A DNA stretch of 64,000 nt from an uncultured Alphaproteobacteria bacterium (GCA_963780805.1 CAWADP010000017.1:16944-80943), one strand, 5' to 3'; positions 3,441 through 30,765 are shown, counted from the stretch's first letter. Made by a program: numbers and translations. Notes: generated by a model from the sequence alone, not told the origin.

Positions 3441-4541
3441 ATGCAACGGATCGTTACGGTTTTACTATGCCTACTGTCTGCCTCTCCCGCGCTGGCGCAG
3501 CGCCAACCACCGCCGCCTCAAGCCGCCACGGCGAACGAAGGCACCGTGGGCGTGATCACCGGCATGGAGGGCGGCACTTACGCACGCACCGGTTCAGATC
3601 TCACCTTGCTCGACGACGACCGGTTGCGCGTGCTTCCCGTGCTTGGGAAAGGTTCGTTGCAGAACCTGTCCGACATCCTCTACCTCAGAGGCATCGATGT
3701 CGGCTTCGTGCAGGCCGACGCCCTGACCTACGCCAAGGAGCACAACCTGTTCCCGGGCCTCGCCCAGAACATCCGCTACATCGCCAAATTGTACGATGAG
3801 GAAGTGCACGTCCTCGCCCGCAAGGATATCGCCCAGATCGCCGGTCTGAACGGTCAGCGCGTCAACGTCGATGTCGCCGGCAGCGGCTCGGCGATGACCG
3901 CGGAAATCCTCCTCGATGCCCTCGGCATCAAGGCGAAAATCGAGCACCAGAAACAGATCATCGGCTTGCATGAACTGGAGCAGGGCGACATCGCCGCCGT
4001 CATTCATGTCGGCGGGGCACCCATTCCGCTGTTCTCGGGGGTGCCCGGCAATCTTGGCCTGCATTTCCTGCCGATCGAACTCACGCCAACTCTGGCGCAG
4101 TCTTATCTGCCGGATCGGTTCACGGCCGACACATATCCCGCATTGGTTCCGTCGGGGGCGCCGGTATCGACGATCGCGGTCGGCGACGTGATGGCCGTGT
4201 TCGCATGGCAGTCTGGCTCGCCGCGGTACGCCAAGGTCGTCCGTTTCGTGAATGACTTCTTCAGCAAGTTCGATGAGTTCCGCCAACCGCCATGGGACCC
4301 CAAGTGGCGGGAGGTGAACCTGACGGCCGAGGTCCCCGGATGGACCCGGTTCCAACCCGCGCAGGACTGGCTGCAGCAGCATGTCGAAGCCGGCAACGCC
4401 AATGTCGCCACGCAAGTCCGGTTCAACCAATTTCTGTCGCAAACCAAGCCGGGGATGGACAACGCTCTGACCGATGCCGCGAAAACCGTCCTGTTCCAGC
4501 AATTCCTCGCCTGGGACCGGCAGCAACCGACGGCACATTGA
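3441..4541 (+). CDS. TAXI-family TRAP-type periplasmic solute-binding protein (orphan, no permease nearby)
   Basis: Signal peptide MQRIVTVLLCLLSASPALA. VGVITGMEGGTYARTGSDL motif and overall pattern of TAXI/NMT1-like binding proteins. Confidence 0.72.
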   Translation: MQRIVTVLLCLLSASPALAQRQPPPPQAATANEGTVGVITGMEGGTYARTGSDLTLLDDDRLRVLPVLGKGSLQNLSDILYLRGIDVGFVQADALTYAKEHNLFPGLAQNIRYIAKLYDEEVHVLARKDIAQIAGLNGQRVNVDVAGSGSAMTAEILLDALGIKAKIEHQKQIIGLHELEQGDIAAVIHVGGAPIPLFSGVPGNLGLHFLPIELTPTLAQSYLPDRFTADTYPALVPSGAPVSTIAVGDVMAVFAWQSGSPRYAKVVRFVNDFFSKFDEFRQPPWDPKWREVNLTAEVPGWTRFQPAQDWLQQHVEAGNANVATQVRFNQFLSQTKPGMDNALTDAAKTVLFQQFLAWDRQQPTAH

Positions 4542-4542
4542 T

Positions 4543-5775
4543 ATGACTGCCCCACAGTCGATACGGCCTTGGCACGCGGCGCTCCGGCTGGGATCGCAGT
4601 CGCGCGGCACAGTCAATCGATCCACCGTCTCTCCTTGGCGCGGGCCTTGGCGCGGGTGCCCTCTTCTTTGGGGGCTGGCACTATTTTCCGCTTGCGTGCT
4701 GTCGATTGGGCATACCTGCCTCGCCGCGGATGACCCGGCGGCCGCAGCAGCGATCCGGGCGGCACGCCCTGACCCGGTCGTAGCCGCGCTGTTGCGCAAG
4801 GTCGAGCAGCAGGTCGCCGAGGGGCATGACATGTCGCCCCCAAAGGACAATGCAATGGAGACCTGGCAACTGGTGATCGACAAGATGCCGTATCCGGTGT
4901 CCGCCGATTTCGCGCGGGCGCTGGCGGATTTCATTGCAGACGTCAAACAACAGTCGGTGCAGGAGTTGGCTGCGAAGAATCAGATCGCCGCGTATGATCT
5001 TTTGACATTCGCCGACCTGGCGGATGGCCAACTGAAGTACTTTCATAACCCTGAGCAATCGACCACTGCGCTCGCCGAGACAGCAATGCAGCCTGTCCCG
5101 CAGCAGTCCACCGCCTCGCCTGCAACGGCGCCGAAGGCAGGCGCCGGGCAGGAGCAAGCGGGTATCCACAGCGCTGTTGCTGTTGATGCGGTGCAACCAC
5201 CCGCCGGTTCGGCCGCAGATCCCAAAATTGCCTCGGAAACGCCTCCACGGGTCCGAAGCGCTGGAATCCAAAACGTTGCGGTTGCCGCCGCTCCAGCCGT
5301 GACGCACCCGTCAGTTACACCGGCGCCGGTTACACAGGCGCCAGGCATGCACCCACCAGTTGCAGACGCACCAGTCACGCAAGCGTCGATCACGCAGCCA
5401 CTGGCCACGCAGGCGCCATTTACGCAGGCGCCATTCACTCAGGCACCAGTCGCGCAGGCACCAGTTACGCACTCGGCCTTTGCGGTACCGGCGTCGCAGG
5501 CCGCTTTGTATGTCAGCCGTGGGGATCAGATGCTGGCCATCAAGGATGTGTCCGCTGCGCGCAAGTTCTTTGAATACGGTGCCGACGCCGGCAGTTCCGT
5601 CGCTGCCGCGGATCTTGCCAAGACCTATGATCCGCTGTTCCTCGGCCGATTGGGGGTGGCAGGCCTGCAACCCGACCTCGAGCAAGCCAGGAAATGGTAT
5701 CGCAAGGCAGCCACGCTTGGTGACGCCGATTCGCAAGCGCGATTGCGCACGCTGAGCGAGCAGGTCTCCCGTTAG
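4543..5775 (+). CDS. Sel1/TPR-like repeat protein with Pro/Thr/Gln/Ala low-complexity linker
   Basis: ATG 4543 sits 1 nt after the upstream stop. Hydrophobic N-terminal segment. TQAP-type repeats at about 5330-5470. C-terminal Sel1 signature ARKWYRKAATLGDADSQARL. Confidence 0.68.
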   Translation: MTAPQSIRPWHAALRLGSQSRGTVNRSTVSPWRGPWRGCPLLWGLALFSACVLSIGHTCLAADDPAAAAAIRAARPDPVVAALLRKVEQQVAEGHDMSPPKDNAMETWQLVIDKMPYPVSADFARALADFIADVKQQSVQELAAKNQIAAYDLLTFADLADGQLKYFHNPEQSTTALAETAMQPVPQQSTASPATAPKAGAGQEQAGIHSAVAVDAVQPPAGSAADPKIASETPPRVRSAGIQNVAVAAAPAVTHPSVTPAPVTQAPGMHPPVADAPVTQASITQPLATQAPFTQAPFTQAPVAQAPVTHSAFAVPASQAALYVSRGDQMLAIKDVSAARKFFEYGADAGSSVAAADLAKTYDPLFLGRLGVAGLQPDLEQARKWYRKAATLGDADSQARLRTLSEQVSR

Positions 5776-5795
5776 TCCAACCGGCTGAGCAGGCG

Positions 5796-6233
5796 TCAGA
5801 TCTCCCAACCGGGACGCGCGGCCGGATATCGTGGCAGTCCGTCTTCCACGCGAATCCACGACAGCCGCGTGCCGTCATGCACATGATCGGCCGGGGGCAC
5901 CTGCTCCGGATCGTCCAGGCTGGCTGACGCGATGTCGATTTCCTTGGAATGCTGATCGCTCTCGAACGTAAGCTGCGTGCCGCATTGCGCGCAGAATCGG
6001 CGAGTGGCGTGCTCGCTGGACCGATAGGCCGCAGGCGCTGTCGCCGTGAAGCGGAACGCCGACCGATCGACGCTGAACCACGCCATCACCGGTGCCCCGG
6101 CCGCGCGCCGGCACATCCTGCAATGACAGATCACGGGGTGGAACGGGGTGCCACCCGCTTCGTAGCGGACGGCACCGCAGAGACAACCTCCGGTCAGCAC
6201 CGCGCCTTCAGGTCCCGATGCCGCCGACCGCAA
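5796..6233 (-). CDS. GFA (glutathione-dependent formaldehyde-activating enzyme-like / CENP-V) family protein
   Basis: Zn-binding Cys pattern GGCLCGAVRY...CHCRMCRR...FCAQCGT. The annotated start overlaps the gabD 3' end by 26 nt. An internal GTG at 6200 is an alternative start. Confidence 0.85.
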   Translation of the reverse strand: MRSAASGPEGAVLTGGCLCGAVRYEAGGTPFHPVICHCRMCRRAAGAPVMAWFSVDRSAFRFTATAPAAYRSSEHATRRFCAQCGTQLTFESDQHSKEIDIASASLDDPEQVPPADHVHDGTRLSWIRVEDGLPRYPAARPGWEI

Positions 6234-7686
6234 GATATTTGACTTCCAGGTACTCTTCGATCCCGTATTTTGACCCCTCGCGTCCCAACCCTGAGAACTT
6301 CATCCCGCCGAACGGCGCCTCGGCAGTGGAGATGATGCCTTCGTTGATGCCGACCAGCCCATATTCCAGCGCCTCACCGACACGGAAGATCCTGCCCACG
6401 TCGCGCGCATAGAAATAGGCCGCAAGCCCGAACTCCGTGTCGTTCGCCAGCTTGATCGCCTCTTCCTCGGTCTTGAATCGGAACAATGGCGCGACGGGGC
6501 CGAAGGTCTCCTCGCGGAAGATCATCGCATCCTTCGGAACGTTTGCCAGCACCGTGGGTTCGAAGAACGTGCCGCCCAGTTTGTGGCGGTGCCCTCCGGT
6601 TACCACGCTCGCGCCGCGCTTCAACGCATCCGCGATGTGCTGTTCCACCTTCTTCACCGCGTCGGCGTTGATCAGCGGGCCTTGCGACACGCCAGGCTCC
6701 ATGCCATTGCCGACCTTCATCGACTCCACCGCGGCCTTCAGCTTGGCGGCGAACGCGTCATAGACGCCCTCCTGCACCAGCAGCCGGTTGGCGCAGACGC
6801 AGGTCTGGCCGGTGTTGCGATATTTGCTGCCCATCGCGCCCTGCACCGCCGCGTCCAGGTCAGCGTCGTCGAACACGATGAACGGCGCGTTGCCGCCCAG
6901 CTCCATGCTGGTCTTCTTGATGGTCGGCGCGCACATCGCCAGCAGCTTGGCGCCGATTTCGGTCGAGCCGGTGAACGACAGTTTCCGAACCAGCGGGTTG
7001 GCGGTCAGTTCCTCGCCCATCGGGCCGGACGGGCCGGTCAGCACGTTGCACACGCCGGCCGGCATGCCGGCGCGCTCGGCCAGCACCGCCAGCGCCAGCG
7101 CGCTGAACGGAGTTTGCGACGCCGGACGGATCACCCCCGTGCAGCCGGCAGCCCAGCCGGGACCGGCTTTGCGGGTGATCATCGCCGACGGAAAATTCCA
7201 CGGCGTGATCGCGGCGAACACGCCGATCGGCTCCTTCAGCACCAGGATGCGGCGGCCCTTGGCGTTCTGCGGGATGGTGTCGCCGTAGACCCGCTTCGCT
7301 TCGTCGGCGAACCAGTCGATGAAGCTGGCGGCATAGGCGATCTCGCCCTTGCTCTCGCTCAGAGGCTTGCCTTGCTCCGCGGTCATGATCACCGCGAGGT
7401 CCTCGGTATTGGCAAGCATCAGGTCCGACAGCTTGCGCAGGATCGCGGCACGTTCCTTCGCCAGCATGGCGCGCCAGGCGGGGTAGGCGCGGGCGGCGGC
7501 CTCGATGGCGCGGCGGGTTTCGGTGGTGCCCATGGCGGGGACCTCGCCGATCGCTTCGCCGTTGGCGGGGTTCTTCACCACGATGGTCTTGCCGCCGTCG
7601 GCCTCGACCCATTTGCCATCGAGGTAGTTCGCCTGACGGAACAGCGTCGGGTCCTGCAAGGGCAGCGGAGAGGTTGGGTTCAGCAT
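6208..7686 (-). CDS. gabD: NAD(P)-dependent succinate-semialdehyde dehydrogenase
   Basis: 492 aa from MLNPTSPLPLQDPTLFRQANYLDGKWVEA. Aldehyde dehydrogenase motifs ITPWNFP, ELGGNAP, and catalytic Cys in GQTCVCANR. Confidence 0.9.
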   Translation of the reverse strand: MLNPTSPLPLQDPTLFRQANYLDGKWVEADGGKTIVVKNPANGEAIGEVPAMGTTETRRAIEAAARAYPAWRAMLAKERAAILRKLSDLMLANTEDLAVIMTAEQGKPLSESKGEIAYAASFIDWFADEAKRVYGDTIPQNAKGRRILVLKEPIGVFAAITPWNFPSAMITRKAGPGWAAGCTGVIRPASQTPFSALALAVLAERAGMPAGVCNVLTGPSGPMGEELTANPLVRKLSFTGSTEIGAKLLAMCAPTIKKTSMELGGNAPFIVFDDADLDAAVQGAMGSKYRNTGQTCVCANRLLVQEGVYDAFAAKLKAAVESMKVGNGMEPGVSQGPLINADAVKKVEQHIADALKRGASVVTGGHRHKLGGTFFEPTVLANVPKDAMIFREETFGPVAPLFRFKTEEEAIKLANDTEFGLAAYFYARDVGRIFRVGEALEYGLVGINEGIISTAEAPFGGMKFSGLGREGSKYGIEEYLEVKYLAVGGIGT

Positions 7687-7856
7687 GGCGCAAGTCCTCC
7701 TTGCCTTGGTTCCCGCCCCTGCCTGCACGGCGGCGGGCCTGGCGGGGATGGGGGCGTTAACCGGAAGATAGGACGGGCGGCACCGAGTGTCAGGGGCGGG
7801 GGCCAGTTGGTCCTTGCCAGGCAGGTTTTTCGTATCTACATTCTGAGGGCGCCGCC

Positions 7857-8165
7857 GTGGGGTATGAATGGGACGAGACGAAGCGACGCAGCAACCTTGC
7901 GAAGCATGGCATCGATTTCACCGAGGTCACCGAGTTTGACTGGTCGTCGGCGTTTGATTGGTCGTCGGCGGTGATCCGGGCGCATCGGCGACGCTTCTAC
8001 GGCGACCGCCGATGGCATGCACTTGGTCCGATCCGTGAGCGATTGCACACCTTGGTCTATACCGAGCGAATGGGACGGACGCGCGTGATCGGTCTTCGCA
8101 AATCGAAGAAGCCAGAGGTCGACACATATGACCACGAGACAGCGCCTGATTCGCCCGACACCTGA
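7857..8165 (+). CDS. brnT: BrnT-family type II toxin (DUF497)
   Basis: GTG start. YEWDETKRRSNLAKHGIDF and LVYTERMGRTRVIGLRKSKKPE match the BrnT pattern. Paired with a downstream BrnA-like ORF. Confidence 0.8.
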   Translation: MGYEWDETKRRSNLAKHGIDFTEVTEFDWSSAFDWSSAVIRAHRRRFYGDRRWHALGPIRERLHTLVYTERMGRTRVIGLRKSKKPEVDTYDHETAPDSPDT

Positions 8166-8439
8166 AGAGGACGCAGAGATCCAGCGCGGCATGGATCAGG
8201 GCCCGGACAATCCGGAATGGACCGCCGAAGACTTCGCCCGTGCCCGCCCTGCCCGCGAGGTGCATCCCGAGCTCGTCGAGGACTACCTGCGTCGCACCCG
8301 AGGCAAGCAGAAGGCCCCGACCAAGGTGCTCGTCTCGCTCCGCCTGGAGCGTGAGGTGGTGGAGCGGCTACGTGCCTCCGGCCCCGGCTGGCAGAGCCGC
8401 GCCAACGACATGCTGCGAAGGGCGGTGCTGGGCGTGTAA
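8128..8439 (+). CDS. brnA: BrnA-family antitoxin
   Basis: DNPEWTAEDFARARPA...RGKQKAPTKVLVSLRLEREVVERLRASGPGWQSRANDMLRRAV is the BrnA_antitoxin pattern. Overlaps the brnT 3' end. Confidence 0.8.
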   Translation: MTTRQRLIRPTPEEDAEIQRGMDQGPDNPEWTAEDFARARPAREVHPELVEDYLRRTRGKQKAPTKVLVSLRLEREVVERLRASGPGWQSRANDMLRRAVLGV

Positions 8440-8536
8440 GGCCGCGTGCAGGTTCCAATCGCCCATCGGGATGTTGGTTCGCACGGCCACCTGAAGCTGA
8501 TCGATTGGAGGATTTTCCCGGCCCCGGAGCGCCAAG

Positions 8537-9070
8537 ATGATGACAACCTTCAGCGTTCCTTCGCTCGCAACAGATCGGCTGAAGCTGCGCGCGTTTCGCG
8601 CGGGCGACCTCGATGCCTATGCCGCGATGCAGACAAACCCAGAAGTGATGCGTTACCTGGTTACCGGCCGACCGTCTACCCGTGTCGAAGTTTGGCGGAC
8701 GATGGCGACTTATCTTGGCCAGTGGGCGTTGCGCGGCCATGGCATGTGGGCCTGCGAGGAAATCGCCAGCGGCACATTTATCGGAAGCGTCGGCATCTTC
8801 CAGCCGCTCGATTGGCCGGAACCGGAGCTCGCCTATTCGCTGGACCAACCGTTCTGGAGACAAGGTTTCGCGACCGAAGCAGCGACGGCCGCTCGCGATT
8901 GGTTGTTCCTGCGGTTTCCCTTGCCTCGGATTGCCAGTTTCATTCGGCCCGACAATCTGGCATCGAAGCGCGTCGCGCAACGGCTCGGCGCGATTTGCGA
9001 ATGCACCTTCGAACTGCGCGGTTCCACCTACGAACATTGGGTACACTACCGGGTCGGAGGAAGCAGCTGA
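8537..9070 (+). CDS. GNAT family N-acetyltransferase (RimJ/RimL-like)
   Basis: TDRLKLRAF..DLDAY...NPEVMRYL...W.CEE...G.FIGSVGI...ELAYSL...WRQGFATEAA is a typical Acetyltransf_3 layout. Confidence 0.85.
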   Translation: MMTTFSVPSLATDRLKLRAFRAGDLDAYAAMQTNPEVMRYLVTGRPSTRVEVWRTMATYLGQWALRGHGMWACEEIASGTFIGSVGIFQPLDWPEPELAYSLDQPFWRQGFATEAATAARDWLFLRFPLPRIASFIRPDNLASKRVAQRLGAICECTFELRGSTYEHWVHYRVGGSS

Positions 9071-13346: not shown

Positions 13347-14192
13347 ATGAGCCTCAGGGATATCCTGGTGTTTCTCGATGCCGGGCCGGCCAGCGCCGGC
13401 CGCCTGCGCCTGGCGGCCGGCATCGCACGCGAGCATGGATCGGACCTCAGCGCCGCTTACCTGGACGATGGCACGGCGTTCAAACATGCCGCCGCCGTGC
13501 CGCGGTTCGGCCTGGTGGCGCAGCTCTGCCCGGACGCGACCGCCGCCCGACCACAAACGGTCCTCCCGCAAGAACAACGGCAGATCTTTCGCGAATGCCT
13601 CCACGGGTGCGGCGCCGACGGCGACTGGCACCACGTGGAGCACGGCGACTCCGCGCGGTTGATCGATCTTGCTCGCGCCGCAGACCTGATCGTGCTTGGG
13701 CAGATCAGCCCCTATCTCCGGCCGTCGCCCTGGTGGCGCACGGACGAGATCGTGGTCGCGGCCGGGCGCCCGGTGCTGCTGGTCCCCTATGTCGGCACCT
13801 ACACCGAAGTCGGACGCCGGGTGCTCGTAGCGTGGGATTGCTCGCGCGAGGCGGCGAGAGCTCTGCACGATGCCCTGCCCCTGATCGGCCGCGCGTCGGC
13901 GGTGACCGTGATGACTGTCCGTACCAACGGTGCCACCTACCAGCATGACCGCGCCGCGACGGAGCGCGTCATCCGTCTTCTGGCGCGGCACGACATCGCG
14001 GCCCGCGCGGAGCACCCGGTGCGTGGCAGTAACGCCGTCTCCGACGTGCTGCTGTCCGCGGCGATGGATTTCTCGGCCGATCTGCTCGTCGCCGGCGCCT
14101 ATCACCACTCGCCGTTACGCGAGGCGCTGATCGGTGGTGTCAGCCGCGAGCTGCTGCAGACCATGACCGTCCCGGTACTGATGTCGCATTAG
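13347..14192 (+). CDS. universal stress protein (tandem UspA domains)
   Basis: ILVFLD...DLIVLG...GRPVLLVP and VLVAWD...ADLLVAGAYHHSPLREALIGGVSRELLQTMTVPVLMSH. Confidence 0.85.
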   Translation: MSLRDILVFLDAGPASAGRLRLAAGIAREHGSDLSAAYLDDGTAFKHAAAVPRFGLVAQLCPDATAARPQTVLPQEQRQIFRECLHGCGADGDWHHVEHGDSARLIDLARAADLIVLGQISPYLRPSPWWRTDEIVVAAGRPVLLVPYVGTYTEVGRRVLVAWDCSREAARALHDALPLIGRASAVTVMTVRTNGATYQHDRAATERVIRLLARHDIAARAEHPVRGSNAVSDVLLSAAMDFSADLLVAGAYHHSPLREALIGGVSRELLQTMTVPVLMSH

Positions 14193-21405: not shown

Positions 21406-22743
21406 ATGCTTCCCGTCGTGGTGATCGCCGGCCGCCCCAACGTCGGCAAATCGACCCTGTTCAACCGGCTGGTGGGCCGGCGCACGGCGCTGGTCGCCGA
21501 CACGCCGGGGGTGACGCGCGACCGCAAGGAAGCGGAGGCGCTGCTGCGCGGCCGCCAGGTGCGGCTGGTGGATACCGCCGGGCTGGAGGAGGCCGCGCCG
21601 GAGACGCTGGCCGGCCGTTTGCGCTCCGGTGCCGAGACCGCGGTCGGGTCCGCCGACCTGGTGTTGTTCGTGGTGGACGCGCGCGAGGGGCTGGTGCCGG
21701 CGGACCGACACTTCGCTCAGTGGCTGCGCCGGCAGGGCCGGCCGGTGCTGCTGGTCGCCAACAAGGCGGAGGGCCGCGCCGCCGATTCCGCCGTGCTGGA
21801 GACTTATGCGCTGGGGTTGGGCGACCCGGTCGCGGTGTCCTCGGAGCATGGCGAAGGCATCGCGGCGCTGATGACGGAGATCGCCGAGCGTTTGCCTGCG
21901 GCGGACGCGGTGGCCGAGACGGATGCGCGGCCGCTGAAGCTGGCGGTAGTCGGCCGGCCGAATGCCGGGAAATCGACCCTGATCAACCTGCTGCTCGGCG
22001 AGGAGCGGATGATCACCGGCCCCGAACCCGGCCTGACGCGCGACGCCGTGGCGTCGGTGCTGCACGACACCGAGGGACCGATCGAACTGGTGGATACCGC
22101 CGGCCTGCGCCGCCGCGCCCGCATCGAGGCACCGTTGGAGAAGCTATCGGTGGGCGCGGCAATCGGCGCCCTGAAGCTGGCCGAGGTAGTGGTGCTGGTG
22201 GTGGACGCCGCCGAGGGCCTGCACGATCAGGACCTTCAGATCGCCCGCCTGATAGAGCGCGAAGGTCGTGCCTGCGTCATCGCGCTGAACAAGTGGGACG
22301 CGGTGCCGGATCGCGGCGCGGCCCGCCGGGCGGTGATGGAGCGGCTTGAGGAGAGCCTGGCGCAGATGAAGGGCGTGGAGGTGGTGGCCGTGTCGGCGCT
22401 GACCGGCGTCGGGATGGAGCGGCTGCTGCCGGCGGTGCGCCGCGCCCATGCGGTGTGGAACCGGCGCCTGCCCACGGGCGAGCTGAACCGCTGGTTCGAG
22501 ACGGCGCTGGAACGCCACCAGCCGCCGCTGGTGAACGGGCGACGGCTGCGGCTGCGCTACATGACGCAGGCGAAGGCGCGCCCGCCCACGTTCGTGGCAT
22601 TCGGCACGCGCGCGGAGCTGATCCCCGAGGACTACCAGCGGTATTTGGTGAACGGCCTGCGCGAGACGTTCGATCTGCCGGGCACACCTATCCGGCTGCA
22701 ACTGCGGGGGACGAAGAACCCGTTTGTCGCCGGGTCTGGCTGA
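21406..22743 (+). CDS. der: ribosome biogenesis GTPase Der (EngA)
   Basis: Two GTPase domains (GRPNVGKST x2, DTAGL x2, NKAE/NKWD) and a KH-like C-terminus. Confidence 0.97.
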   Translation: MLPVVVIAGRPNVGKSTLFNRLVGRRTALVADTPGVTRDRKEAEALLRGRQVRLVDTAGLEEAAPETLAGRLRSGAETAVGSADLVLFVVDAREGLVPADRHFAQWLRRQGRPVLLVANKAEGRAADSAVLETYALGLGDPVAVSSEHGEGIAALMTEIAERLPAADAVAETDARPLKLAVVGRPNAGKSTLINLLLGEERMITGPEPGLTRDAVASVLHDTEGPIELVDTAGLRRRARIEAPLEKLSVGAAIGALKLAEVVVLVVDAAEGLHDQDLQIARLIEREGRACVIALNKWDAVPDRGAARRAVMERLEESLAQMKGVEVVAVSALTGVGMERLLPAVRRAHAVWNRRLPTGELNRWFETALERHQPPLVNGRRLRLRYMTQAKARPPTFVAFGTRAELIPEDYQRYLVNGLRETFDLPGTPIRLQLRGTKNPFVAGSG

Positions 22744-23030
22744 AGCGGCGTCATCGTCATGCCGGCGAAATCCGGCATCCACGATCTGCATTCGGCTGGT
22801 TGACCGCCCGCCGTTGTGATCTTCTCCGGGTGCAGTTTGTTGTTGATCAATTCGGGCGCCGGTGCGATTGTGGTCCTCAAGGTGCCGGAAATAAGACGGA
22901 TCTAGATTTCGATTGCCGCCGCGTATCCGGCCAAGCGAAGAGACATGCCCAGGATGGGTGCTCCCAAAGATGGGTGCGCGCCTCATAAAAGCCTTGCGAG
23001 GTTCAAACCTCGCCACGCCGGGGGATATGG

Positions 23031-24129
23031 ATGTCTGAGCAACGAACTCCTTCTCGAGAAGCATCGATTGTCTTGCAAGCTCCACCATGCGACGTGAGAC
23101 CGGCGCTTTGCCTGGGTGTCAGCGTCTCAACCGTGGGGAGCGAACACCTTCTCGTCGCCGACGATCTTGAGATCTGTGTCGAGGGGTTGCCCGACGCTAT
23201 GGCGCGCCGGGTCGTGTCTCGCTTCAATGGCCGCGAGACCGCCACCTCCATCGCGGCGGCAGCTGGATTACCCGTGGCGCAGGTGATCGCCATTGTGACA
23301 AGGCTTATGGCAGCCGGCGTCGTGGTGGACCTGCGCGGCGGCAGGGAGTCGGATCTGACACCGGATGCCTTCATTGCCCTTTGTCAGCGCTCGTATTCAA
23401 TGTGGAAAACGCGCCTCTTCGGTCATCCGCTGTGGCGTGGATTGAACACGGGAGAGGCGGCGCCATCCCAGTTCATAGGCTGGCTGCTGGAGAGTTACCA
23501 CTTCGCGGAAGGCGTGAACCTGCGCTTGCCGTTGGCGATCGCGCATTGCCACCAGCGCGAAATCCGCGATCTGCTGTCTCAGCACTATGCCGAAGAGTAT
23601 GATCATGAAAGGTTCTTCTTGTCGGCGCTGGCGGAACTGGGCGTCGAACCGGAGATTGTCATAGCGGCGCGGCCCTTGCCTGGTACCCGGGCCATCCTGA
23701 ACCATATGCGCGACTGTGCTCGCACGGATCCGCTGCACTACGCGGTGTGCGGCGGCTTCCTTGAAGCGACCGGGACTGATCGCACGCTTGGGCGCGTATT
23801 CATCGCAAACCTCGAACGGCACTATGCACCGGAAAATCCGCTGGTTGTACCAGCCACTGATCGATCACGCAGCCCTCGACGACCTGTACGGACACCGTGG
23901 GCTGCTTGCCGCGCTCTGCCGCTGCGTACCCGAGCTGCCATGGGAGCGTGCATCGGCCGCGCTTGGCTCCTGCGCCTTGTTCGTCGAGACGCTGGAGCTT
24001 TGGTCGACGGACATCATGATGACGTACGCGCAGCCAGCACTTACGCCTGACCGGAGCCCCTGGCATTACCGTAGAATGGTTGCCGCGAGAGACACCGGGC
24101 ACGTTGGACTGGCGGGTGAGCGGCCATGA
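23031..24129 (+). pseudogene. RRE(PqqD)-like winged-helix domain fused to heme-oxygenase-like iron-containing redox enzyme domain, paralog 1; frame broken by an apparent 1-nt insertion near 23847
   Basis: Frame A 23031..23846 (...GWLLESYHF...HYAEEYDHERFF...LERHYAPENPLV) continues colinearly with paralog 2 only in frame B from 23848 (YQPLIDHAALDDLYGH...). Frame B ends in an ATGA overlap with the next gene at 24126-24129. Confidence 0.7.
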
Positions 24130-25145
24130 CCCCCCATTTGCATTCGGCCAGTCGTCCACTGCTCAGCGCTCGCGCACGCACGCTGACGTCGGACAGCGAA
24201 CTCGTGGTCGATACGCGGGACATGGAGTTGACCTTCAGTGGGAGAAGCGCGGCCCTGCTTGCTCGCGTGCTCGACCACCTGGACGGCCGGCGCCGGATCG
24301 ACGAGATCAGTGCACAACTGGATCTAAGCGAGAACGAACTGCGGAAAACGCTCCAGGTGCTGGTGGATGAAGACGTCATGTTCGACGCCGGCGCCGTTTT
24401 CGACGCGCGCTCTTCGCAGGCGTTCCTGGACGCGTATTTCGCCGAGTGCCGGTTCTTGAGCAACGAGATCTTCGCCCAACCGTTCTGGGAGACATTGCTG
24501 TCGGGGCGCGCCGGGCGCAACCTCGTGCTCGGCTGGGGCATCGAGTTCCACCACTTCGTCGACGCTGCCAACGAGCATATGGCGGTCGCGGTCGCGCAGT
24601 GCCGGGATGGCGCGCGCACGCGCGCCTGGCTCGCAAAACATTACGTCGAAGAGCGCGACCACGGGTCGATTTTTCTCGACGGACTGGCAGGCACCGGCCT
24701 TGATCGTGAGCTGGTCCGCAGGGCGCCACCGCTGCCATCGACCAGGGCATTGATAAACTATCTGACCGAGCTGGCATCGGTGGACACGATCGCATACGCG
24801 GGAACATTCGGGGTCATGCAAGCCAATCGCGAGGCGATGTCCCGAGACGCGCTAGAGCGATTGTTCACGTTTCTTGCCGGTCAATACCCATTCGCGGCAC
24901 GATTGTTCGATGCCTTCCGCGAGCACGCGCTGATCGATGCCGACCTGCAGCATCAACATCTGATTCTGGAGGAGATGTTGGAAGACGGCAAAGCATTGCC
25001 ACCTGACGTCGTCGCCCGGCCGATCAATGCGGCGCGAAGCGTCACGGAGCATTTCATCATGTTTTTCGAAGGTATTCATCAATACTATAGTCTTGCCGAG
25101 GCCGAGATGCCGCGCTGTGCATTCGACGTTCGTCTTGTCCGATGA
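24126..25145 (+). CDS. RRE(PqqD)-like winged-helix domain fused to heme-oxygenase-like iron-containing redox enzyme domain, paralog 2
   Basis: 339 aa. N-terminus ELVVDTRDMELTFSGRSAALLARVLDHLDGRRRIDEISAQLDLSENELRKTLQVLVDEDVM. C-terminal helical domain with GWGIEFHHF, HYVEERDHGSIF and FREHALIDAD. Clearly homologous to 23031-24129. Confidence 0.75.
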   Translation: MTPHLHSASRPLLSARARTLTSDSELVVDTRDMELTFSGRSAALLARVLDHLDGRRRIDEISAQLDLSENELRKTLQVLVDEDVMFDAGAVFDARSSQAFLDAYFAECRFLSNEIFAQPFWETLLSGRAGRNLVLGWGIEFHHFVDAANEHMAVAVAQCRDGARTRAWLAKHYVEERDHGSIFLDGLAGTGLDRELVRRAPPLPSTRALINYLTELASVDTIAYAGTFGVMQANREAMSRDALERLFTFLAGQYPFAARLFDAFREHALIDADLQHQHLILEEMLEDGKALPPDVVARPINAARSVTEHFIMFFEGIHQYYSLAEAEMPRCAFDVRLVR

Positions 25146-25163
25146 CGAGGCCGCAGAGCATGC

Positions 25164-26492
25164 ATGGTCGAAGCCGTGGCATACGCTGAGCGATTCAGCG
25201 GGTCCGCCGCGATGTCCCGGCGCGCCGAGCGCGTGGTCGCCGGCGGGACGCAACACGACAGTTGGCGGCTGCAGCCTTTCCCGGTGTACTTCAGCGAAGC
25301 GCGCGGCCCATTCAAGTGGGACATCGACGGGCATCGCCTGGTGGACTGCTGGATGGGGCACGGCGCACTGTTGTTCGGCCACGGTTATCGACCGGTTGTC
25401 GACGCAGTCGCCCGTCAACTGGTCCGCGGTACCCATCTCGGGGGGGCACACGATCTTGAAGTGCGTTGGGCGGAGCTGGTCTGTGAACTGATCCCCTCTG
25501 CGGAGCGTGTCCGCTTTACCTCATCCGGCACCGAAGCGACCCAGCTCGCGCTCCGGGTCGCCCGAGCATTCACCGGCCGTAACCACGTCGTGAAACTCGA
25601 TGGTCACTTCCACGGCTGGCACGACGAGGCGCTCGCGCATTTTGTGGAACCAGCTTCGGCCGGTCTCAATGCCGGCTCGCTCGACGGTGTCAGTATTGGC
25701 GATCCGTGGTCTGTGGCGTCCATCGCCCGGCTTCTCGCCGAGGAGCCCACGGCTGCCGTCATACTTGAACCGGGAGGCGGTGGCAGTGGTGCGTTGCCGT
25801 GGAGCCCGGACTTCCTTCGAGAGCTGAGGCAAGCAACGCAGGAGCACGGCACACTGCTGATCTTCGACGAAGTCGTCAGTGGATTCCGCTATAGCTCCGG
25901 TGGTGTGCAGCAACTCTGTGGTGTGACACCCGATCTTACGGTGCTTGGGAAGATCCTGGCTGGCGGGCTTCCGGGGGCTGCGGTCGCCGGCCGAGCCGAT
26001 GTCATGGCAGTGTTCGGCGCGGGAACAACAGGCGCGGGCGGACCGGCAAAGGTCGTGCACACCGGCACATTCAACGCAAACCCGCTGTCTGCCGCTGCCG
26101 GCATAGCGGCGCTCGAGCGGGTTGGGGATGGCACAGCGCAGGAGGCCGCAGCTTCGGCGGCCGAGACGCTCGCCCGGCTGGTCAATGAGGCGGCTCGCGC
26201 TAACGACGTCGATGTCTGCTTATATACCCAAAGTTCGATCTTCCACGTGCTGATAGGCGCGCGACGTGCAGGATCTCCACTTGGACCGTCTGCGTCGGCG
26301 ATGACACTTTACAAAGCGCATGCGAACTCATATAACATTCTTAGAAGAGCGCTGCTGGTTGAGGGGGTTGACTGCCATCCGCTGCACGGTTGGCTTTCAG
26401 CTGCGCACGAAACCTCAGCCGTGCATGAGGCGGCGGCCGCGTTCGATCGCGCGTTTCGCCAACTCCACCGGTCCACGGAATTCGCGCTATAA
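25164..26492 (+). CDS. class-III PLP-dependent enzyme, glutamate-1-semialdehyde 2,1-aminomutase-like
   Basis: RVVAGGTQHD..., SSGTEATQLALRVARAFTGR, IFDEVVSGFR, and PLP-lysine context DLTVLGKILAGGLPGAAV as in HemL-type enzymes. 442 aa. Confidence 0.88.
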   Translation: MVEAVAYAERFSGSAAMSRRAERVVAGGTQHDSWRLQPFPVYFSEARGPFKWDIDGHRLVDCWMGHGALLFGHGYRPVVDAVARQLVRGTHLGGAHDLEVRWAELVCELIPSAERVRFTSSGTEATQLALRVARAFTGRNHVVKLDGHFHGWHDEALAHFVEPASAGLNAGSLDGVSIGDPWSVASIARLLAEEPTAAVILEPGGGGSGALPWSPDFLRELRQATQEHGTLLIFDEVVSGFRYSSGGVQQLCGVTPDLTVLGKILAGGLPGAAVAGRADVMAVFGAGTTGAGGPAKVVHTGTFNANPLSAAAGIAALERVGDGTAQEAAASAAETLARLVNEAARANDVDVCLYTQSSIFHVLIGARRAGSPLGPSASAMTLYKAHANSYNILRRALLVEGVDCHPLHGWLSAAHETSAVHEAAAAFDRAFRQLHRSTEFAL

Positions 26493-26605
26493 AGGGAGGA
26501 CCCTGCCAATGGCTTAGCGATTATTGACCCCGAATACGTCGACCATAGGCCCGCGCCACACATGTGATGCGCTGTACGCTTACCATCAGCACTGAGGAGG
26601 ATGCC

Positions 26606-26782
26606 ATGGCGGATACTAAGGCCCTAGACCCCCACGAAGTCGTCGTGACTGTCTCAAAGGGTGAGGCCAAGCACGTGAAGATCGTCGAGCGCGACACGCC
26701 GGAAAGCGCCGAGATCACCGTCAAAGTCAGCCGGAAGCGGCCAGGCGGGTCGTTGCCGTTACTGGGATTGATGTTGAAATAG
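26606..26782 (+). CDS. 58-aa small ORF, candidate precursor/scaffold peptide
   Basis: GAGGAGGA (26594-26601) lies 4 nt before the ATG. Product MADTKALDPHEVVVTVSKGEAKHVKIVERDTPESAEITVKVSRKRPGGSLPLLGLMLK. Sits between the PLP and radical SAM genes on the same strand. No homology evidence available. Confidence 0.45.
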   Translation: MADTKALDPHEVVVTVSKGEAKHVKIVERDTPESAEITVKVSRKRPGGSLPLLGLMLK

Positions 26783-27194
26783 TCCTTGCCCGCCGAGACA
26801 AAAGCGACCGAGATCGACGACCCGATCGAGCTTTGACAAGATGAAGCCGGTTGGCAAGATCCGGTTCGAATCCCTGTGCGGTGCGGTGTCAAAGCGGTCA
26901 CTGTGCCGGGCAGCGGTCGGTGCACTGGGGTTCAGGACCGGGTCCCAGATAGCGTTCATTCGCTGGTCGGTTCGCAACGTGTCGGATATTCAGATAACGT
27001 GAGTCGAGAACGGAGGGGCGCACCGTCGCCCCTTCGCGCCGTACAGGGCCGGGTGGGCGATAGAAGCCGACACCGTGCAAGTGTCTGCATACCAGTTTCA
27101 CGAGCCGGTGTTCTGCGACGCGGATATGGTGTCCACAGCGCCCGCTGGCTATCCTGGAATGCGGCTGAACCACCTGAAATCAACGGGGGAAGCG

Positions 27195-28994
27195 ATGGCC
27201 AACTCGCGAAAGACGTTCGTGCTGATCTACAACGATCAGTGGGGCCGCGTTCGATCGCATTCCTCGAATCGAGCTACCGGCTTGCGTCCGCGGAAGTTCA
27301 CGCCGCTTCACGAATTTCTCGGGCTGGATGAGGAAGAATTTTCTTCACTCAGATATGGCGGTTCAGAGCACCCGATTTGGAGCCCTCGCCCGATATTCGC
27401 CAATGCCACCTTCCTGACCACGGCGGCGGTGATGACAATTCTCGACCGTCACAGAATTCCAACCCACGCCTATGGGGAGAGCAGCCTGCTCGACGATCGG
27501 GTGCAGCTCGATGGGCTTACTTCAGAGAACGTCGTTGCCGTTGGTATTTCAACCACGTTCATCTTCGATGACAAGTCACTGGATTTCCTGGTACGTAGGG
27601 CCAAACAGCTCATACCCGGCGTGCCGGTCATCGTTGGTGGGGCGGGGATCACGCTCAATCCGGACTGGTTTGAGGCAACGGACGCCGATTTCTGTATCGT
27701 GGGGGACGCCGAGTTTGCTCTTCCAGAGCTCCTGAACCGTCTGGAAGCCGGCCACGACTTCACAGATATACCGAATCTTACGTGGCGCGTTCGATCTTCA
27801 ATTCCCGTGTCCGATGCCAGGTCTGATGCCAGTCATGCGGTTCGACGAAACCCACGGGACAACAGCATTAAGCTTGACGCAATTCCCACGCCTCGGTGGG
27901 ATTTGACGACCGAGGATGGCGAATGGCCCGAGAGCATTTTTTACGAATCCCTGCGCGGATGCCCATTCAAATGCAAGTTCTGCAGCTACCCGCAGCAATC
28001 GCCGGTCTGGCGCGTGAAGAGTGCGGAGCGAATGGCGGAGGAATTTGCGTATTATGCGTCGCACGGCGTGCGCTACATCATGTGCCTTGATTCAACGATG
28101 CTTACGCCCATCGCGCGTATGCGTAAATTCACCCAGCTTCTCATCGAGCTTAATGCTCCGATTTTGTGGGGCTGCTGGGCGCATCCGAGCCAAGTTCAAG
28201 ATCCTGAACTCTGCCACATGTTGTATCGGTCAGGATGCAGGGTGGTATCAATGGGCATCGAATCCGGAAGCGAACAAATTCTTGATAATATGGCTAAACA
28301 TATCTCTACGCAAAAAGCAGTTCGTGCCATTGACAATCTAAGGCAGGCGGGGCTGTATGTCCACGCGAACTATATCATCGGCTTTCCCGGTGAGACGCAG
28401 GAGACAGCCAGGGAAACCATCAATTTCATGAAACGCACGCAGGCCGATTCATACACCCTGCAGGCGTTCCAGGTGCGCGATAAGCTGATTCCGATCCTGG
28501 CGGAGGCCGCATCCTATCAGCTTAGCATTCATATGGACGAAGAAGGAAATTACCAAGGGTGGACACACGCGGAGATGAATAGCGAGGAAGCCGAGCAACT
28601 GGTCAGAAACGCACAACGGGAGTTGATTGCTTCCTGCCCGAGCGTCATTTCATTTGCCATGCTCGCCTCTGGCACCCATTATGCTCCCGGGCTTAGCGAA
28701 GATACCAGCGATATTGCCTATCGCCGGAGCGCGATTACTCCAATTGTAAAAGAGTATGAACAATTCCTCTTCGCAACACCCAGTTTTGGACTGATGGGAA
28801 ACGGTCATAAATCCTATAAGGTCGCGAACAAGCATCGGCAGATTGGCCGAGGCCTGTTAAGGGAAGAGCTATCGCGTGGCCGAATTATCTCCGGCGCCAC
28901 ACACCAGCGTGTCCAGGCGCGGTCCACGATGGCGGGGAAATCGATAGCGCCTGGGGATTCCGCCAGCAAAGCGGTTTTTCGACACACCGATTAG
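27195..28994 (+). CDS. B12-binding-domain radical SAM enzyme (class B)
   Basis: GGGGGA RBS. N-terminal cobalamin-binding-type Rossmann segment (VVAVGISTTF...PVIVGGAGITLNPDWF..DFCIVGDAEFALPELL). Radical SAM cluster motif ESLRGCPFKCKFCSYP (CX3CX2C). GIESGS and GFPGET motifs. An alternative ATG at 27159 exists. Confidence 0.9.
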   Translation: MANSRKTFVLIYNDQWGRVRSHSSNRATGLRPRKFTPLHEFLGLDEEEFSSLRYGGSEHPIWSPRPIFANATFLTTAAVMTILDRHRIPTHAYGESSLLDDRVQLDGLTSENVVAVGISTTFIFDDKSLDFLVRRAKQLIPGVPVIVGGAGITLNPDWFEATDADFCIVGDAEFALPELLNRLEAGHDFTDIPNLTWRVRSSIPVSDARSDASHAVRRNPRDNSIKLDAIPTPRWDLTTEDGEWPESIFYESLRGCPFKCKFCSYPQQSPVWRVKSAERMAEEFAYYASHGVRYIMCLDSTMLTPIARMRKFTQLLIELNAPILWGCWAHPSQVQDPELCHMLYRSGCRVVSMGIESGSEQILDNMAKHISTQKAVRAIDNLRQAGLYVHANYIIGFPGETQETARETINFMKRTQADSYTLQAFQVRDKLIPILAEAASYQLSIHMDEEGNYQGWTHAEMNSEEAEQLVRNAQRELIASCPSVISFAMLASGTHYAPGLSEDTSDIAYRRSAITPIVKEYEQFLFATPSFGLMGNGHKSYKVANKHRQIGRGLLREELSRGRIISGATHQRVQARSTMAGKSIAPGDSASKAVFRHTD

Positions 28995-29020
28995 TCTGGC
29001 TCGAGTTAGTCTGGCTCGAG
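28991..29020. repeat. 15-bp tandem duplication (ttagtctggctcgag x2) overlapping the radical SAM stop codon
   Basis: Copies at 28991-29005 and 29006-29020, read directly. At the right edge of the low-GC cassette. Confidence 0.85.
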
Positions 29021-29170
29021 ACGGCTTTGCGGACCGAATGCACTAACTTCTTCGTCCGTTGCCGCACCACCCCTTGGCGCGCGGCCATTTCCTGGCCGGG
29101 GCTTCGTGTGTTCTGCTGAGGTGCATGGGGCCGCCGCCCCTTGTCAGTGCCCGCCGCGAACAGGTCGAGG

Positions 29171-30668
29171 TCAGCCGCGGGCAAACAACGCCGCGCCACT
29201 GCCGGCGATACGGCCGAAGGTGACCCCGGCCACCAGTCCCGTGCCGCTGCCGTAATTATGATAATAAAGGCCACCGACGATCTCCCCGGCGGCGAACAGT
29301 CCGGCAATCGGCGTGCCGCAGGTGTCTTCGACCTGCGCGGCGGTGGACACCTTGAGGCCGCCGAAAGTGAACGTCACGCCCGCCGTCACGCCGTAAGCAT
29401 GATATGGCGGCGTATCCAGCTTCTGCGCCCAATTGGTCTTGTCCACGGTGAGGCCAAACGTGCGCAGCCCGTCATGGATGTTCGGGTTGAACGCCACGTC
29501 CGGCCGCGGCGCATCGTTATAGGCGTGCAGCGTCGCCAGCACCGCCTGCGGATCGACCCCCGTCAGCTTGGGCGCCAGCACCTCCAGCGTATTCGCGGTC
29601 TCCTTGGTGATGCGGGCGATGCGATACTCCTCGCGCAGCAGGTGGTTGATCTTCGAGTCGAAGATCTGCCAGCCGAACAAGCCGGGCTGCTTCATCACCT
29701 CATGGCCGTACTTGGCGTAGGTGTAGGAATGGAAGTCGGCACCTTCATCCAGGAACCGCTCCCCCCGCGCGTTCACCAGCACGCCGAACGGATAGTTGTG
29801 CTTCTGGAACCGGTCGCCGATGGTCAGATCGCCGAACGGCGGGGCGTTCATGTCCCACTGCACCGCATGTGCGCCGGACCAATGTCCGGCGACCGCGGCG
29901 CCAATGTCGATCGCCATGCGGTGGCCGTAGCCCTGGTTGAAGCGGGTGCCGCGCACCTTGGCCAGGTCCCAGTTTGGTCCCAGGTAGCGTGCCCGCATCT
30001 CGGCGTTGGATTCGAAGCCGCCGCAGGCCAGCACCACCGACTTCGCGCGCAGATCGAAGCCGCGGCCGTCGGTGGCGCACGCGCACGCCCTGGATGCGCG
30101 CATCGTCGTGCAGCAGCGCATAGGCGGTGGTGTCGTACAGCACCGGCACGCCGGCCTTCTCCAGCGCCGCGTGCAGCGTCGGCACGAGTTGCGCGCCCCC
30201 GCCCAGCAGGTGGCACGCCAGCCCGCCCCAGAACTTGAATTTCCCCCCGACGTTGAACGCCTGCCGCCCGAGCGCCGGCTGGAACCGCACGCCATGCTGG
30301 CGCAGCCACAGCGCCGAGGCGTAGCTGTTGGAGATCAGCACCTCGGTCAGGTCCGGATCGCAGCGGTATTCGGTCAGCCGGCCCATATCGTCGAAATACT
30401 GGCCCTCGGTGTAGGTGCCGAAATCGATAGTCGAAAGGTCCAGGTCCTTGATGTCCGGCGCCAGCGCGAGGAGGTCGTCCACGCCGGCGTAGACGAAACG
30501 AAACGCTCCCCCGGTAAAGGCCGAGTTGCCGCCGCGTGCTTCCTGTGGCGCGGTTTCCAGCATCGCCACCGAGGCACCCGCCTCATGCGCCGCCAGCGCC
30601 GCGTTGGCCGCCGCGTTGCCCGCGCCGATCACGAGCACGTCCACTTGCGTATAGGTCGTTGGAGTCAT
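29171..30668 (-). pseudogene. tcuA: FAD-dependent tricarballylate dehydrogenase (TcuA)-like gene, frame broken near 30077
   Basis: N-part VDVLVIGAGNAAANAALAAHEAG...NSAFTGGAFRF...ARIQGVRV in one frame. C-part ATDGRGFDLRAKSVVLACGGFESNAEMRARYLGPNWDLAKVRGTRFNQG...TFTFGGL...LFAAGEIVGGLYYHNY in another. The junction is consistent with a 1-nt insertion in a gcgcgtgcgcc context. Confidence 0.8.
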
Positions 30669-30765
30669 GGCGCTGGATCCTGGCGAAACGAGCATCAGGA
30701 CCGTGTGGGCCGCGCTGCCGCCTGTCAATCGTTGGACCGGGGGAATGCTGGTGTTCGACAGCAAG

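Follow-up and report, generated by a model that had tools for sequence, protein, structure and literature searches.

A short lysine-ending peptide encoded beside two oxidases with a predicted peptide-recognition domain and a class-III aminotransferase: a probable new class of ribosomal peptide pathway

The stretch of DNA analysed here (the "window", 64,000 nucleotides from an uncultured Alphaproteobacteria bacterium, GCA_963780805.1 CAWADP010000017.1:16944-80943) carries a small open reading frame (ORF) at positions 26606–26782 of its plus strand, within a run of same-strand genes that encode, in order, a Der GTPase (21406–22743), two paralogous heme-oxygenase-like dimetal oxidases (HDO-1 at 23031–24129, and HDO-2, whose two domains occupy 24126–25145), a class-III pyridoxal phosphate aminotransferase (25164–26492), the small ORF itself and a B12-binding radical S-adenosylmethionine (SAM) enzyme (27195–28994); a convergent flavin adenine dinucleotide (FAD) oxidoreductase gene follows. 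We consider it quite likely that the ORF encodes the precursor, that is the substrate, peptide of a pathway of the type that yields RiPPs (peptides made on the ribosome and then modified after translation), in which two fusions of a RiPP recognition element (RRE) to an HDO, together with the class-III aminotransferase, are the defining enzymes.

The ORF runs from ATG to TAG and its 58-residue product is exactly MADTKALDPHEVVVTVSKGEAKHVKIVERDTPESAEITVKVSRKRPGGSLPLLGLMLK, as given in the first-pass annotation of this DNA, a model's reading of the sequence that had described a leader-core precursor peptide; the good Shine-Dalgarno (SD) sequence that it reported is also there, GAGGAGGA at 26594–26601 (plus strand), 4 nt ahead of the ATG when read directly. 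Similar purine-rich SD sequences precede the homologous genes at two other loci, L002 and L003 (such labels denote loci outside the window). Four relatives of the peptide, 98, 74, 73 and 65% identical to it, emerged when 5.8 billion proteins were searched by word index; on every contig that carries one of them its gene lies directly 3′ of the aminotransferase gene, and on those contigs that extend further it is followed directly by the radical SAM gene. The ORF is annotated as a gene on L001, a near-identical metagenome contig with the same gene order (99.2% identity, 22 gap openings in 21.8 kb), and the gene callers of the source collection annotated it independently on other contigs. Pairwise comparison of the window, L002 and L003 by the Nei-Gojobori method gave ratios of nonsynonymous to synonymous substitution (dN/dS) of 0.22–0.29 at dS values of 0.5–0.85, while the spacers that flank the gene are nearly unalignable among them except for the SD region and one 49-nt block. 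The reading frame is held at such ratios between spacers that barely align, and the 58-codon ORF is therefore a protein-coding gene on which purifying selection acts; these ratios, together with the conservation of the peptide across phyla (below), rule out a chance ORF in GC-rich DNA.

Two further ORFs nearby, a 134-aa antisense ORF that overlaps the peptide gene (26521–26925, minus strand) and a 53-aa ORF in the downstream spacer (26841–27002, plus strand; annotated as a gene on L005 and L006), are without a conserved counterpart and look like spurious ORFs of GC-rich DNA; no counterpart of the 53-aa ORF was found in the divergent relatives L002 and L003. The 49-nt block lies at 27025–27073 and is 82% identical to part of the much shorter spacer of L003, the rest of the 412-nt spacer being unalignable; it could serve the radical SAM gene as a promoter or regulatory sequence. 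Rfam gave no match to a structured RNA in 22600–29300, a terminator scan around the peptide gene stayed at the level of shuffled sequence, and a hairpin 3′ of the stop codon was not significant (z −1.3).

The peptide belongs to a family that is rare but widespread. A profile built from five close peptide sequences and run against 1.84 billion representative proteins returned 27 matches, 25 of them clusters of family peptides of about 55–107 residues, from Acidobacteriota, Myxococcota, Proteobacteria and one cyanobacterium. Public copies are all named "hypothetical protein", and no profile in the Pfam and NCBIfam libraries matches the peptide or describes its family, so that a known peptide family is ruled out. 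A scan of the GTDB species representatives with an HDO-2 profile found 28 loci, none of them from the species of the window itself, in Acidobacteriota, Myxococcota (including Sorangium sp. So ce134), Sphingomonas, Reyranellaceae, Montanilutibacter, Pseudomonas mosselii, Chromobacterium sphagni, Robbsia, Serratia inhibens, five Xenorhabdus species, a metagenome-assembled genome (MAG) of the Alteromonadaceae and a cyanobacterium. Orthologues of HDO-1, HDO-2 and the aminotransferase stand in that order at 20 of the 28 loci (L010–L028 and L030). The contig of L010 ends inside HDO-1, so that its upstream region cannot be read and 19 loci count for co-occurrence with the peptide; a small Lys-ending ORF lies beside the enzyme trio at all 19 of these loci, which have the full trio and an unbroken upstream region and span Acidobacteriota, Myxococcota, Alpha-, Beta- and Gammaproteobacteria and a cyanobacterium. 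A conserved small ORF in related cassettes was what the first-pass annotation had proposed as a check on its reading, and it is found both here and in the shared slot of the four close relatives. Massilia sp. W12 and Xenorhabdus miraniensis have the same arrangement of peptide and enzymes. Outside the window clade the peptide gene is nearly always immediately upstream of HDO-1; a remnant of a peptide gene was looked for upstream of HDO-1 in the window and none was found. The peptide thus has two general features of a RiPP precursor: it is short and ribosomally encoded, with a conserved reading frame (by dN/dS and by homologues across phyla), and in unrelated genomes its gene keeps the same modifying-enzyme genes as neighbours.

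Some loci vary this arrangement. The Alteromonadaceae MAG (L026) has two peptide genes (8706–8858 and 13931–14131, with the ends KRPLGVMIK and RRPIGVMIK), one upstream of HDO-1 and the other after the aldehyde dehydrogenase gene, and at L011 the peptide gene is just upstream of a third HDO gene and not of HDO-1. More distant HDO genes, mostly paired and at most 35% identical to HDO-2, are found at L031–L037, where there is neither an aminotransferase nor a G-x-x-x-K peptide; they resemble a sister system that acts on some other substrate.

Residue conservation was counted over 46 non-redundant peptides. Lys closes 45 of the 46 (position −1), Gly stands at −5 in 44 and Pro at −8 in 32; the hydrophobic residues from −2 to −8 are conserved as well, and the family's C-terminal consensus is P-V-L-G-V-I-V-K. 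In the window this putative target module is PLLGLMLK (residues 51–58, 26756–26779, plus strand). The first-pass annotation had stressed a Leu/Pro/Met core, which is not supported family-wide: the family's conserved putative target is the C-terminal Lys module. A second conserved element is a strand-like motif, phi-x-phi-x-phi-[ST]-[KR], present in 45 of 46 peptides and ending 15–17 residues (mostly 15) before the C-terminus in 43; it reads ITVKVSR in the window (residues 37–43, 26714–26734, plus strand; its end is 15 residues short of the C-terminal Lys) and, in most of the other peptides, ITVQVSK, and we propose it from its pattern as the strand that would bind the RRE. Motif and spacing are also those of the short, Lys-rich peptides found in Xenorhabdus, Serratia and Robbsia (FSLNVKK...RRALGALVK). 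Of the two beta-prone segments that had been noticed in the window peptide, both of which are present, it is therefore the second (AEITVKVS) that is family-wide; the first, HEVVVTVSKG (residues 10–19, 26633–26662, plus strand; consensus EVV[VI][TH]VPKG, about EVVIHVPKG), belongs only to the long-leader subfamily and is absent from the Xenorhabdus/Serratia/Robbsia, Alteromonadaceae and Massilia variants. The basic patch SRKR and the aliphatic tail are present, and recur through the family, and Pro-Gly-Gly and the lack of Cys are as first described; the window peptide also lacks Tyr.

Leader types vary by lineage, being long and beta-rich, short and Lys-rich, or a true double-glycine leader accompanied by a C39 ABC exporter, while the strand motif and the G-x-x-x-K end persist. 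By these comparisons the conserved unit is a 22-residue C-terminal module, in which a putative docking strand is followed by a fixed-length spacer and by G-x-x-x-K, whose carboxylate is free. The leader-core layout first proposed is supported to the extent of a putative recognition region and a conserved, putative C-terminal target region in a real, conserved gene. Its supposed Gly-Gly cleavage motif is not supported: Gly47-Gly48 falls in the variable spacer, where the window and its closest relatives have GG, GA, GA, AA and PA, and the window cassette has no C39 transporter, so that the peptide lacks the features of a C39-processed double-glycine leader. A classical double-glycine leader is found at L040 (Massilia sp. 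W12, 3904–8758), whose peptide is MNAINTNVANEKELSAEEIAAVSGG|AAQAVEVVKSPAANTAALGAMMK and whose peptide gene lies downstream of genes for an HlyD-type protein and an ABC exporter with a C39 peptidase domain; among the lineages found, this one alone has genes from which export and removal of the leader can be read.

HDOs are a fast-growing superfamily whose unusual oxidative reactions include C-C cleavage, N-oxygenation and desaturation. The two paralogues of the window are about 31% identical, and an orthologue of HDO-1 is found at every locus; the JGI annotation names the HDO genes "PQQ biosynthesis protein C". HDO-1 consists of an RRE-like N-domain and a heme-oxygenase-like domain, and HDO-2 of an N-terminal domain (residues 1–100, 24126–24425) and a heme-oxygenase-like dimetal domain (24426–25145; both on the plus strand). 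The N-domain of HDO-2, modelled alone with AlphaFold2 (pLDDT 95.3), is predicted to have strands at residues 18–22, 25–29 and 34–38 followed by helices at 39–51, 58–65 and 69–81, the three-stranded sheet and three helices of an RRE fold. Its best Foldseek match is the RRE of PbtF with bound peptide (8t19, E 1.4e-4, TM 0.75); further matches are LynD, TruD, TbiB1 with leader peptide, ThcOx, TigE, McbB, PqqD, MibB, TbtB and MccB, with 8t19, 4v1u, 4bs9, 5v1v, 5lq4, 8vpo and 5sxy (PqqD) as the top entries. Most of the best-scoring PDB matches are RREs, several of them solved with a bound leader peptide. HDO-1 aligns with HDO-2 from residue 10 on, and the N-domain, RRE-like by prediction, is therefore common to both paralogues, in keeping with the RRE-type N-domains that the first-pass annotation had attributed to them.

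The catalytic domains are of the HDO fold, with matches above cut-off to PF03070 and PF14518 in HDO-1 and to PF14518 in HDO-2. The AlphaFold2 model of full-length HDO-2 (21 homologues; pLDDT 92, pTM 0.88) has a C-terminal domain that Foldseek matches to 3dde, CADD, PqqC (including the natural PqqCD fusion), TenA, UndA and BesC; by sequence the only solid PDB relative of HDO-2 is 3dde, and MboA, BesC and PqqC are marginal. In 17 orthologue pairs the invariant candidate metal ligands are E140, H143, E176, H179, H267, D271 and H276 of HDO-2 and E154, E189, H192, E245, H279, D283 and H288 of HDO-1, in which position 157 varies among H, F, W and Y. Both paralogues thus keep His/carboxylate sets on core helices that are predicted to bind metal, and the iron-dependent oxidation suggested earlier is plausible on this ground. 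Several cassettes add a third HDO, which follows the aldehyde dehydrogenase gene at L011 (14589–15596), L017 (13760–14851), L019 (13808–14884) and L027 (13811–14800) and is directly 3′ of the aminotransferase gene at L015/L041 (12432–13505).

The aminotransferase (Pfam PF00202; with the HDO pair at the 20 loci above) belongs to the branch of glutamate-1-semialdehyde aminomutase (GSAM), D-phenylglycine aminotransferase (D-PhgAT) and beta-transaminases; its nearest solved structure is D-PhgAT (2cy8, E 1e-75), and it scores below every curated NCBIfam cut-off. Downstream of the aminotransferase gene, 10 lineages carry an aldehyde dehydrogenase gene and one (L013) a gene for an aldo-keto reductase; Xenorhabdus cassettes add a major facilitator superfamily (MFS) transporter.

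The reading of the ORF as a substrate peptide follows from its co-occurrence with the trio, the exchange of leaders around a kept terminal module, the fixed distance between strand and Lys, and the RRE fold predicted for the oxidases. Since leaders are exchanged while the strand motif and G-x-x-x-K persist, the peptide would be a substrate and not a structural partner, and a strand kept at a fixed distance from the C-terminus is what binding to an RRE by strand addition predicts. We propose that the RRE sheet of HDO-1, HDO-2 or both gains ITVKVSR as an additional beta-strand, with help from EVVVTV in this subfamily, and that the fixed 15-residue spacer would bring P-L-L-G-L-M-L-K, with its free carboxylate, to the dimetal site. 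There, O2-dependent oxidation by both HDOs and amine/carbonyl exchange by the aminotransferase would remodel the C-terminal Lys or its immediate neighbours. The carbonyl intermediate would probably be an aldehyde, as the recurrent aldehyde-processing accessories (aldehyde dehydrogenase in most cassettes elsewhere and, once, aldo-keto reductase) suggest; it could arise from the Lys epsilon-amine, converted to allysine by the transaminase, or be made by an HDO and then aminated, and homology leaves this direction undecided. In the window clade the peptide gene has left its place upstream of HDO-1 and lies downstream of the aminotransferase gene, and the B12 radical SAM enzyme has been added, which would serve as a tailoring step. 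The binding, the modification site and all of the chemistry are what we infer.

Several observations weigh against this reading. The RRE fold of the N-domain is that of a predicted structure, and against Pfam the N-domains gave no match to PF05402 (PqqD) but only sub-threshold ones to HTH_20, HTH_24, TrmB and PaaA-like_N (E 0.07). Action of the aminotransferase on the Lys epsilon-amine is not implied by its homology, since its nearest solved relative, the D-phenylglycine enzyme, acts at alpha-carbons. The aldehyde dehydrogenase of the other cassettes best matches HpaE, BADH and aminobutyraldehyde dehydrogenase, all below cut-off and with no subfamily signal, and we dropped its subfamily as a clue to the substrate, the result being generic; the window cassette itself has no aldehyde dehydrogenase. 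Neither a protease nor an exporter is part of the conserved gene set. HDO-1 of the window, moreover, is frameshifted at about 23845–23850, whereas L001 and L004 have an intact copy. The 22 indels over 21.8 kb that set the window apart from L001 look like consensus errors of long-read assembly, and the shift is probably one of these; the alternative is a real defect, in which case the window copy may be defective.

A different use of the same peptide would be as a sacrificial scaffold, a carrier used once, which would after modification release a small molecule derived from lysine (a cofactor, signal or antimetabolite) by excision, so that the product is not a peptide. Precedents are pyrroloquinoline quinone (PQQ), which is excised from PqqA, and mycofactocin, which is excised from MftA. 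The C-terminal module is almost invariant across phyla, as is typical of the precursors of cofactors and not of diversifying antibiotics; the oxidases share the Pfam family and fold of PqqC, of which natural fusions with PqqD are in the PDB; an aminotransferase with an aldehyde dehydrogenase is a typical small-molecule pair; and the MFS transporter of Xenorhabdus could be counted on this side too. We nevertheless regard a scaffold as unlikely. No peptidase is conserved in the cassette with which to release such a product, the double-glycine leader and C39 ABC exporter of Massilia would export a 23-residue peptide, and the conserved hydrophobic residues at −2 to −8 would be needless if Lys alone mattered, unless they serve purely for recognition. 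The peptide could also be a small protein with an accessory or regulatory role, such as an effector of the dimetal enzymes or a factor in their assembly, co-transcribed with them by chance. Small effector proteins do serve diiron oxygenases of other families, and the "leader" shows more conservation and more beta-prone sequence than is usual in RiPP leaders and might adopt a small fold. This we hold to be very improbable, because whole leader types are swapped and only the 22-residue Lys-ending module is kept, because the enzymes carry a predicted domain whose known role is the binding of precursor peptides, and because one variant has a secretion leader.

The remaining alternative makes the radical SAM enzyme (Pfam PF02310 and PF04055) the main modifier, with class-B C-methylation of the Leu/Pro/Met tail and the HDOs secondary; the first-pass annotation leaned this way in taking this enzyme as its reference and in suggesting a search for the peptide next to homologues of the gene at 27195. 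Such a search succeeds in the window clade, where the two genes adjoin, on the same strand, in the window, L002, L003, L004 and L007 and the radical SAM gene is immediately downstream in all close relatives, and it fails at relatives of 41–46% identity (in a Candidatus Entotheonella genome and other assemblies), which lie in unrelated neighbourhoods without HDO, aminotransferase or such a peptide; the enzyme is thereby ruled out as an anchor of the family. A distant cassette, the Blastocatellia locus L013, also carries a B12 radical SAM gene, 29% identical and on the opposite strand, but no homologue was detected in the cassettes of the other family genomes. Cores deviate most in the two lineages that bear the enzyme (PLLGLM[LV]K and AGGTIAK, where the others have PVLGVIVK), yet these two cores have no Leu, Pro or Met in common. 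All NCBIfam models of RiPP radical SAM enzymes score far below cut-off (92 against 282 bits for TIGR03975 and 84 against 750 for NF050148); its best NCBIfam match is to the PhpK family, TIGR04479, at 200 bits against 600. A main role for this enzyme is therefore, to our mind, distinctly improbable. The gene is a clade-specific accessory and not the defining enzyme of the system; its product is probably a methyltransferase, and the deviant cores of both lineages that carry it hint that it may also act on the core.

With the substrate-peptide reading preferred, the system can be set beside known ones. The PQQ pathway (PqqA, the RRE PqqD, PqqE and PqqC; fusion structure 5vrd) resembles it in having a small precursor, an RRE, an oxidase of the PqqC fold that can be fused to an RRE, and a radical SAM enzyme. 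PqqC, however, is cofactor-less and acts on a free small molecule, whereas the oxidases here keep dimetal ligand sets; their sequence similarity to PqqC is marginal (E 0.3), and their RRE is N-terminal where that of the PqqC-PqqD fusion is C-terminal. The window peptide has no Glu-X3-Tyr, the radical SAM enzyme is of the B12 and not the SPASM type and is not conserved, an aminotransferase is part of the core, and the cassette has no PqqB, so that the set that defines PQQ synthesis (a Glu-X3-Tyr PqqA, a SPASM-type PqqE and PqqB) is absent from the window cassette. Daptides end in an amine that is made from a C-terminal Thr through oxidative decarboxylation, transamination and methylation, and their pathways share with ours RRE dependence, rewriting of the C-terminal residue and a class-III aminotransferase. 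They differ in that the residue here is Lys, the oxidases are HDOs and there is no N-methyltransferase; the aminotransferase reaches 104 bits against the NF041821 cut-off of 450. RiPP systems with multinuclear non-heme iron-dependent oxidases (MNIO, DUF692), such as ApyHI with ApyD at a C-terminal Asp, combine multinuclear iron oxidases that act on peptide C-termini with B12 radical SAM tailoring. The likeness is that of iron oxidases and a B12 radical SAM enzyme in one cluster, but the MNIO fold is a TIM barrel and that of the HDOs is helical, and ApyD is the enzyme described by the far sub-cut-off model NF050148 (above).

Among the HDOs themselves, BesC, which fragments 4-chloro-lysine, and HrmI/BelK, which oxygenate lysine at N6, act on lysine (PMC13108848). 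They have the same fold, dimetal chemistry and lysine substrate, and BesC is among both the fold and the sequence matches found here, but their substrates are free amino acids, they have no RRE and the similarity is weak (E 0.2). The closest solved relative of both HDO domains is PDB 3dde (Sden_3740 of Shewanella denitrificans; E 4e-11 and 3e-4, TM 0.81), a heme-oxygenase-like domain of unknown function that at 239 residues has no RRE domain. A 2026 review of HDOs gives as its sole example of a role with ribosomal peptides the RiPPER genome-mining paper on thioamidated peptides (PMC13108848). In full-text literature searches, whose results were partly noise, we found no description of an RRE-HDO and aminotransferase system or of this peptide. 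This type of oxidase is hardly precedented on peptides, and the system lacks defining features of both the PQQ and the daptide pathways.

To our knowledge HDOs have so far been known almost only to act on free amino acids and fatty acids. On the reading preferred here the system works like an RRE-dependent RiPP pathway. It is a probable new RiPP class. We lean toward regarding it as the founding example of a class in which RRE-fused HDOs act on a ribosomal peptide by way of a 15-residue "ruler" and, with the transaminase, convert the terminal Lys via an aldehyde into a new C-terminal group, which would be the first clear case of an HDO recruited to a peptide by an RRE. If so, HDO chemistry would extend to peptides, a new C-terminal modification would be defined, and the peptide signature with the RRE-HDO pair would provide a handle for genome mining. 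Hosts of the family include culturable and genetically tractable bacteria (Xenorhabdus, Serratia inhibens, Pseudomonas mosselii, Chromobacterium sphagni, Sorangium, Sphingomonas and Massilia), so that the hypothesis is directly testable.

A few observations concern the surroundings of the cassette. The FAD oxidoreductase gene beyond the radical SAM gene (29171–30764, minus strand) is also split by a frameshift in the window and is a single intact ORF on L001 and L004. The window's only aldehyde dehydrogenase homologue (6226–7383, minus strand) is 33% identical to the cassette-type enzyme of P. mosselii; it lies 20 kb away from the cassette and so probably has no connection with it. The G+C content is 59% over 26001–30000, the part of the window with the peptide and radical SAM genes, and 65–72% in the flanks; in other genomes the cassette lies in unrelated contexts, and in Xenorhabdus it adjoins TraU/TraG conjugation genes and an integrase gene. 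The drop in G+C, the unrelated contexts and these Xenorhabdus neighbours together suggest that the cassette was acquired horizontally.

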